A DNA stretch of 35,939 nucleotides from a virus. Lineage: Duplodnaviria; Heunggongvirae; Uroviricota; Caudoviricetes. The DNA lies in the IMG/VR virus record IMGVR_UViG_2627853983_000005; one strand, given 5' to 3'. The notes under the pieces are model-generated. The model made no database searches and was not told the DNA's origin. It saw only the letters and a list, made by a program, of their open reading frames with translations. Below are positions 34,647-35,939 of this stretch, piece by piece (the stretch's first letter is position 1; each line of letters begins with the position of its first letter). A program made the translations under genes and the position numbers.

Positions 34647-35939
34647 CATGAGTACCACAACACGTAAATTTAAAACCGTTATCACCGATACGGGTGCCAA
34701 AAAATTAGCTCAGGCAGCCGCGCCAGATGGTAAGCCTGTCCGCCTGACTCATATGGCCGTGGGCGACGGTGGCGGCACGTTGCCCACACCAGACAGTAAG
34801 CAGACCCGTCTGGTGCATGAGGTGTGGCGACATACTGTTAATCGCGTCATCCTGGACGCAACACATCAGAACCGCATTATTGCGGAGCTGGTTATTCCTC
34901 CTGAAACGGGCGGATTCTGGATCCGGGAAATTGGTGTATTTGATGAGCACGGCGATTTAATCGCGGTGGGCAATACTGCCGAAAGTTACAAGCCAGCCGT
35001 TGCCGAAGGGTCCGGTCGTGCACAAACATTTCGCACCATTCTGACCGTATCCAGCACTGCCACCGTGGTGCTTACCGTGGATAACACCATGGTGATGGCC
35101 ACAGTGGATTACGTGGATGACAAACTGAAAGAGCATGAACAGTCACGACGTCACCCGGACGCCTCGCTGACCGCAAAAGGCTTTGTTCAACTCAGTAGCG
35201 CCACTAACAGCGTGTCTGAAACGCAGGCTGCAACGCCGAAAGCAGTAAAGGCCGCGTATGACCTTGCTAACGGTAAATATACTGCGCAGGATGCCAGCAC
35301 GACGCGAAAAGGCCTTGTCCAGCTCAGTAGCGCCACCAACAGCACGTCTGAAACGCAGGCTGCAACGCCGAAAGCAGTAAAGGCCGCGTATGACCTTGCT
35401 AACGCAAAATATACCGCTCAGGACGCCACGACGGCACAAAAAGGGATAGTCCAGCTCAGTAGTGCCACCAACAGCACGTCTGAAACACTGGCCGCGACAT
35501 CGAAAGCTGTTAAGGCGGTAATGGATGAAACGAACAAGAAAGCGCCCTTAAATAGTCCTGCACTGACCGGAACGCCAACAACACCAACTGCGCGACAGGG
35601 AACGAATAATACCCAAATCGCAAGCACGGCTTTCGTTATGGCTGCGATTGCCGCCCTTGTAGATTCGTCACCTGATGCACTGAACACGCTGAACGAGCTG
35701 GCTGCGGCGCTGGGCAACGACCCGAATTTTGCGACCACCATGACTAACGCGCTTGCGGGTAAGCAACCGAAAGATGCCACCCTGACGGCGCTGGCCGGAC
35801 TTACTACTGCGGCAGGCAAGTTTCCGTATTTTACGGGGAATGATGTCGCCAGCCTGGCAACCCTGACAAAAGTCGGGCGGGATATTCTTGCGAAATCGAC
35901 CGTTGCTGCCGTTATCGAATACCTCGGTTTACGAGAACT
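34647..35939 (+). CDS. H: Tail fibre protein gpH, 5' constant part; partial (runs off window) and apparently frameshifted after codon 11
   Basis: Starts MSTTTRKFKTV in one frame; P2-H-like sequence ITDTGAKKLAQAAAP...MAVGDGGG...HEQSRRHPDASLTAKG... continues in the +1 frame from 34681 to window end. Confidence 0.8.
35176..35520 (+). repeat. Three tandem ~120-bp in-frame repeats within H (phage tail fibre repeat)
   Basis: Repeated units encoding KG(F/L/I)VQLSSATNS(V/T)SET(Q/L)AATPKAVKAAYDLAN(G/A)KYTAQDA. Confidence 0.8.
35912..35937. promoter_or_regulatory. gix/cix-like invertase crossover site (right), inside H coding sequence
   Basis: TTATCGAATACC-TC-GGTTTACGAGAA; reverse complement shares the half-site TTCTCGTAAACC plus core with the left site at 3-28. 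Confidence 0.6.

Follow-up and report, generated by a model that had tools for sequence, protein, structure and literature searches.

The DNA analysed here, a stretch of 35,939 nt of phage DNA referred to below as the window, carries the 5' part of a tail-fibre gene at its right end and the gene of a serine DNA invertase at its left end, and each of these two ends contains a recombination site. The fibre gene, H, starts with an ATG at position 34648 on the plus strand and runs to the last nucleotide of the window (34648-35939), where it is still open after 430 codons and 2 nt. Its translation ends with ...KSTVAAVIEYLGLRE (...VIEYLGLRE), followed by the remaining 2 nt. The reading frame encodes a P2-type tail fibre with the Pfam domain Phage_tail_fib at the N terminus (1e-53) and three Phage_fiber_2 repeats, and the identical sequence in ST131 genomes is labelled 'tail fiber protein' in RefSeq. 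At the nucleotide level, imperfect tandem repeats of ~132 nt that are ~86% identical extend from 35172 to 35516; they correspond to the three Phage_fiber_2 repeats. The end of H is ~97% identical to phages P88, 520873 and P884B11 over 1.9 kb.

A 26-bp crossover site, TTATCGAATACCTCGGTTTACGAGAA, is located in frame within H at 35912-35937 on the plus strand. This gixL-like site has the structure TTATCGAATACC-TC-GGTTTACGAGAA with the central dinucleotide at 35924-35925, and it encodes (V)IEYLGLRE. Its gixR-like counterpart on the invertase side occupies positions 3-28 on the minus strand (TTATTTAAAACC-TC-GGTTTACGAGAA, central dinucleotide at 15-16). The two sites are inverted relative to each other, share the core ...ACC-TC-GGT... 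and thus have identical central dinucleotides. When the 35.9-kb window was searched with a degenerate gix/cix-like pattern allowing up to 3 mismatches, these were the two matches obtained; the same search gave 0 matches in 100 dinucleotide-preserving shuffles. The translation, the pattern search with its shuffles and the Pfam match bear out the original prediction that the crossover site lies inside the coding sequence of H. The similarity of the two ends extends beyond the sites, since nucleotides 1-19 are the exact reverse complement of 35921-35939. These 19 nt are the outer part of a longer inverted repeat, exact over 70 nt, that lies on either side of the invertible segment in the prophage of strain EC958 (see below). 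On the invertase side the outer half-site contains an in-frame TAA at 22-24 (minus strand), giving the reading AII*NLGLRE. A cassette joined to this site therefore has no upstream reading frame from which it could be translated and is silent. The same stop codon is present in P88 and 520873 and absent in Mu.

The sites were compared side by side with Mu gix, P1 cix and the sites of P88, 520873 and P2 H. Few positions distinguish the window sites from Mu gix (TTATCCAAAACCTCGGTTTACAGGAA), and the central TC is common to both. Both gixL and gixR of Mu read TTATCCAAAACC-TC-GGTTTACAGGAA, with the junction peptide QNLGLQE in Mu S; cixR of P1 reads TTATCCAATACC-TT-GGTTTAAGAGAA (QYLGLRE in P1 S); the H sites of P88 and P2, the latter a relic, read TTATCGAATACC-TC-GGTTTACAGGAA and TTATCGAATATC-TC-GGTTTACAGGAA, respectively, and both encode EYLGLQE. 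In the window the H side encodes EYLGLRE and the invertase side a stop followed by NLGLRE. A junction motif therefore exists, as had been claimed, but it is looser than the proposed EYLGLxE, which is the form found in P2 and P88; the sites compared here conform to [EQ]-[YN]-L-G-L-[RQ]-E. In the database record of P1 the cix crossover is annotated at the centre of the site. By analogy, strands would be exchanged here at the central TC, 35924/35925, in which case the invertible segment already includes the last 14 nt of the window (the inner half-site plus CT). As predicted, the constant N-terminal part of the fibre does stop at the recombination site, but its boundary would lie at this dinucleotide and not at the window end.

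The invertase gene (83-682, plus strand) starts with GTG and encodes a protein of 199 aa with the catalytic Ser9 in the motif MLIGYVRVS. It contains the Pfam domains Resolvase (1.4e-50) and HTH_7 (4e-13) and matches the Gin structures 4M6F and 3UJ3 in the PDB with E = 3e-100. Its identity is 99.5% with the phage 520873 invertase, 82% with Mu Gin and 71.5% with P1 Cin; in the EC958 prophage RefSeq names the protein 'recombinase family protein'. The distance from the site to the start codon is 54 nt, the same as between gixR and gin in Mu. A presumed recombinational enhancer, equivalent to the Fis-dependent sis element, is situated inside the 5' end of the gene at 101-172 (plus strand). This stretch, nt 19-90 of the gene, is identical to Mu gin at 72/72 positions and to the enhancer annotated at nt 19-90 of P1 cin at 55/72. 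Dependence on an enhancer and Fis, like the exchange point, is established for Gin, Cin and Hin, and by homology 101-172 is presumed to act as a Fis-dependent enhancer here as well. A simple sigma-70 scan of positions 1-800 found no promoter for the invertase gene.

The segment absent from the window

A prophage that sits between serS and dmsA in E. coli ST131 genomes (EC958, JJ1886 and many others) matches both ends of the window at 100% identity. Window positions 8460-35939 correspond to 48548-21069 of the EC958 locus (L003) at 100% identity, and positions 1-8479 to 18350-9872 at 99.98%. Positions 8460-8479 are common to both blocks, and this 20-bp overlap is the att core, which joins the ogr/hok end of the phage to its integrase end. 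It follows from this mapping that the window is an excised circular permutation of the phage, opened at the invertible segment and lacking that segment only. The original prediction had placed the arrangement in a prophage. This is right for the identical ST131 prophage, but the window itself does not represent the integrated form.

The phage is temperate and belongs to the P2-type, P88-like phages of the genus Xuanwuvirus, family Peduoviridae. Head, lysis and baseplate genes follow the order of P2, and the block of sheath, tube and tape-measure genes lies on the opposite strand, after the invertase gene and facing it, as is characteristic of Xuanwuvirus. In the records of P88, 520873 and P884B11, H is followed by two tail-fibre assembly genes, the second of them inverted, by an inverted fibre fragment and by the DNA invertase gene; beyond these, the genes for tape measure, tube and sheath lie on the other strand. 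This is the gene order obtained when the right end of the window is joined to its left end via the missing segment.

In EC958 the invertible segment comprises 2718 bp. It consists of a first H C-terminus (A) with the assembly gene tfa, followed in inverted orientation by a second assembly gene, tfa', and a second H C-terminus (B). The original prediction was that the C-terminus of the fibre is supplied by whichever end of the segment is joined, in the manner of Mu S and P1 S, and the two opposed H C-termini in the 100%-identical EC958 prophage agree with it. When both orientations of the EC958 segment were translated as continuations of H, the fibre had a length of 661 aa in the orientation found in EC958 (A) and of 740 aa in orientation B. 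A separate assembly gene comes after either C-terminus (177 and 175 aa). Both arms open with the same peptide, LRELGTSGEKIPLLSTA..., and because their starts are identical the exact inverted repeat amounts to 70 nt, of which the window contains 19 nt and the segment 51 nt. In EC958 the repeat reaches ~103 nt if one mismatch is allowed.

Over its C-terminal 165 aa, tip A has 88% identity with Mu S' and 87% with P1 S'. For tip B, identity over the last ~80 aa is only 35-51% when it is compared with the tips of Mu S, P1 S, P2 H and P88 H. Judged by their different tips, the two fibres may differ in receptor specificity and host range. The content of the segment is taken from identical prophages found elsewhere, and the sample from which the window derives could carry a different cassette.

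The distance between the sequences corresponding to the window ends was 2718 bp in most ST131 genomes. Other values were 2728 bp in JJ1886, 3495 bp (+777) in JJ1887, 2613 bp in CD306, 2571 bp in Ecol_542 and 1926 bp in Ecol_867. The three shorter distances, those of CD306, Ecol_542 and Ecol_867, differ from 2718 by multiples of 3.

It might be supposed that the window ends at the site by chance, as the result of an arbitrary cut. This is scarcely credible: the two ends stop at mirror positions, each at a depth of exactly 19 nt in one and the same inverted repeat, and nothing but the invertible segment is missing from the circular phage. A number of metagenome contigs also break off in this repeat. 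Some (L008, L019, L022 and L052) end 36 nt further into the repeat, which results in a 55-nt overlap, and others (L027, L044 and L048) end at its outer edge. The break was probably introduced during assembly, at the point where an inverted repeat collapses in the de Bruijn graph. A depth of 19 nt would fit a k of ~20. We considered the contig break as proof of inversion and rejected it, as a 70-nt inverted repeat alone can produce such a break. The 4110-nt contig L009 (IMGVR_UViG_2568526230_000001) has the segment bordered on either side by the constant part of H (930-990 on the plus strand and 3709-3769 on the minus strand), a structure that is impossible in a single molecule and most likely reflects a walk through the collapsed inverted repeat. 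This contig was likewise rejected as proof that a single culture contained both orientations, since a walk of this kind yields the same contig without any mixture.

Orientation of the segment in genomes and contigs

Complete E. coli genomes were searched with two junction queries of 1400 nt, each composed of 400 nt of the constant part of H and 1000 nt of either arm A or arm B. Both junctions were matched at 100% identity and 100% coverage in many genomes, mostly of ST131. Orientation A was found in EC958, AR_0086 and AVS0193, among others. The first four rows of an evenly spaced listing of the matches to this query were perfect, which suggests that orientation A is present in about a hundred records. 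Orientation B was found in strains including 4/1-1, 4/4, JJ2434 and MNCRE44, with at least 40 perfect matches (all 40 of those listed); in these genomes it is arm A that adjoins the invertase gene. The two orientations are about equally common among the near-clonal ST131 genomes. The same picture emerged from 54 related IMG/VR and metagenome loci, which were collected by exact-match scans with the final 61 nt of H in the window (IMG/VR) or with the shared 19-mer (metagenome contigs). In these the constant part of H was joined to A in ~10 and to B in ~10 cases, and the invertase flank was likewise joined to either arm. The homologous segments of P88 and 520873 also lie in opposite orientation. 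H of the 100%-identical prophage thus lacks a single fixed 3' continuation, the outcome that would have spoken against a switch, and both junctions are present in genomes as well as in contigs.

Inversion in this prophage has been described before. In a preprint on ST131 wound isolates (bioRxiv 10.1101/2022.05.07.487787) a reversible inversion was reported in a prophage named 'Entero_P88', where it takes place between the fibre genes GpH and Mup49/S, together with a 70-bp flanking repeat, a phage invertase and confirmation by PCR/XmnI within one isolate; according to the same preprint both orientations coexist within single ST131 isolates, again confirmed by PCR. This 'Entero_P88' is the same element as the one analysed here, and the 70 nt that we computed independently agree with the reported length of the repeat. 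The switch is therefore already known, including in this exact ST131 prophage, and it is a member of the Gin/Cin family of invertible fibre systems. The original description of P88 (PMC5285337) nowhere mentions an inversion.

P2 provides the precedent for a different reading, in which the site in H is a relic, the phage has one fixed fibre and the window ends merely mark an assembly broken at a repeat. The H gene of P2 has a near-identical unpaired site (TTATCGAATATCTCGGTTTACAGGAA) and the phage has no invertase; besides, an inverted repeat longer than the k of the assembler breaks contigs whether or not inversion occurs, and many metagenome contigs stop at this point. In the window, however, the canonical core ACC-TC-GGT is intact and the partner site and an intact invertase gene are present on the same molecule. 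The identical prophages in both orientations and the switching confirmed by PCR in the preprint also stand against a relic, which is thus very improbable.

Probable inversion mechanism and relation to other fibre switches

We conclude that the locus is very probably an invertible tail-fibre switch of the Mu G-segment type in a P88-like temperate phage, flipped by a Gin-family invertase at 26-bp sites. Invertase domains, a pair of sites, two cassettes (these from the EC958 prophage) and both orientations were all found, which places the system among the Gin/Cin/Pin/Hin (Din) systems. The Gin-family invertase (83-682) would pair the inverted sites at 35912-35937 and 3-28, assisted by host Fis bound to the presumed enhancer (~101-172) within its own gene. 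Strand exchange at the central TC/GA dinucleotide would then flip the segment of ~2.7 kb that lies outside the window. The promoter, the start codon and the first 426 codons of H would remain fixed, and inversion would fuse this fixed part via the ...LGLRE... junction to one of the two tips, each with its own assembly chaperone. As a result a lysogen population would be expected to release virions carrying one of two fibre types.

The inversion could also be real and yet proceed by RecA-dependent homologous recombination between the inverted repeats of 70-103 nt, the invertase being dispensable. The length of the repeat in EC958 (70 nt exact, ~103 nt with one mismatch) is sufficient for homologous exchange at low frequency, and since there is no polymorphism inside it the exchange point is unmarked, so that sequence alone cannot separate exchange at a 2-bp core from exchange by RecA. 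This explanation is nevertheless improbable on several grounds. An intact Gin orthologue, with an enhancer equivalent identical to that in Mu gin, lies beside canonical sites with matching central dinucleotides. Relatives whose arms have only the ~26-bp site in common keep the same architecture; in 520873 the inverted repeat amounts to 33 nt at 76% identity. Finally, the roughly equal frequency of the two orientations in near-clonal ST131 and their coexistence in one isolate imply a high rate of switching. The arms of the 520873-type segment share ~12 nt, and its predicted inverted junction was also searched for in E. coli genomes. The full-length matches obtained were fixed P2-type H-G genes without an invertase (B7A).

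The switch attributed here to the Gin-family invertase has the same layout as the G segment of Mu: a constant 5' part of the fibre gene, a site, two opposed cassettes each composed of a C-terminus and an assembly gene (S/U and S'/U' in Mu), a second site and an invertase gene transcribed away from the segment. The sites are near-identical with a central TC, and the 54 nt between site and start codon are conserved. In contrast to Mu, the carrier is a P2-type phage (Peduoviridae), the constant part comprises 426-430 aa of the P2 H type instead of the ~170 aa of Mu S, the junction reads EYLGLRE instead of QNLGLQE, and the C-terminal DNA-binding domain of the invertase diverges from that of Gin. 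The C segment of P1 and P7 with its invertase Cin is the same kind of fibre switch, and the variable arms of the window phage begin with LRELGTSGEKIPLLSTA as do those of S and S' in P1. However, cin lies on the other side of the segment, with cixL overlapping its 3' end, and the central dinucleotide is TT and not TC.

The closest relatives are P88, 520873 and P884B11, which share the genome organisation and have an H constant part that is ~97% identical and invertases that are 94-99.5% identical. P88 and 520873 differ in that their cassettes are partly different, with an LQETVN type on one or both arms. P2 H belongs to the same N-terminal fibre family, the baseplate genes have the same order (V-W-J-I-H), and the relic site likewise encodes EYLGLQE, a form of the same junction. 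Unlike the window phage, P2 lacks an invertase, a partner site and an opposed cassette, and in its relic site (P2 locus L006, 2358-2383) ACC has changed to ATC. In a megablast comparison the similarity between the H genes of the window and P2 ends within the crossover site.

Switching of fibre C-termini by an invertase and inverted repeats is also known from the P2-like prophages of EPEC E2348/69 and from e14 with its invertase Pin. In EPEC E2348/69 one locus has three repeats and four variants, whereas two sites only were found here and in EC958. The tail-fibre variants of the EPEC prophage coexist in clonal cultures, as detected by sequencing and PCR (PMC4272514), and in systematic surveys tail-fibre genes appear among the gene families in which programmed inversions are enriched (PMC9881135).

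A device of this kind is a textbook case of bet-hedging, as one lysogen gives rise to phage of two fibre types. The switch accounts for the break in short-read assemblies of the prophage at this point and for the fact that near-identical strains are annotated with 'tail fiber' genes of 661 or 740 aa. It is also a warning that contigs with the constant part of H on both sides, such as L009, or contigs that end in the site are assembly products. In work on the phage biology of ST131 or on receptor typing both fibre forms need to be considered.

A third repeat copy and other features of the prophage

The 70-nt repeat, together with its crossover site, occurs a third time in ST131 chromosomes. In AR_0086, the one genome examined in this respect, this third copy lies ~0.5 Mb away in the side-tail-fibre gene of a lambdoid prophage (locus L061, NZ_CP032201.1 3638372-3650441, match at 6001-6070). 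The lambdoid prophage has opposed assembly-gene and fibre cassettes of its own but only a truncated recombinase pseudogene. It is conceivable, though rather doubtful, that the invertase encoded in the window is the sole enzyme flipping the fibre of the lambdoid prophage in trans and that it occasionally recombines the two prophages. A hint at such action in trans comes from the preprint cited above, which describes an inversion in a prophage that has no invertase and, at the same repeat, a 'translocation' (bioRxiv 10.1101/2022.05.07.487787). If this were true, fibre cassettes would be swapped between unrelated phages, or ~0.5 Mb of the chromosome would be inverted.

Several other genes of the window deserve mention. 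Between the lysis genes and the tail gene R an open reading frame of 625 aa (29301-31178, plus strand), assigned to DUF6645 in RefSeq, is present that is absent from P88; a PADLOC search gave no match for this gene. The same search of the accessory open reading frames yielded a weak Csx27-like match at 18907-19749. To judge by the RefSeq annotation of the identical prophage in EC958, the region 17545-18823 (plus strand) encodes ParM and a member of a plasmid partition/stability family, in a P2-type phage that integrates. The annotation of the EC958 prophage also includes a Hok/Gef toxin gene beside the att end, at about 7900-8250 of the window. Finally, the gpD-like late tail gene (6322-7563, plus strand) is an intact open reading frame of 413 aa in the window; the EC958 reference differs by two gaps in this region, where an 801-nt gene and a pseudogene fragment are annotated.
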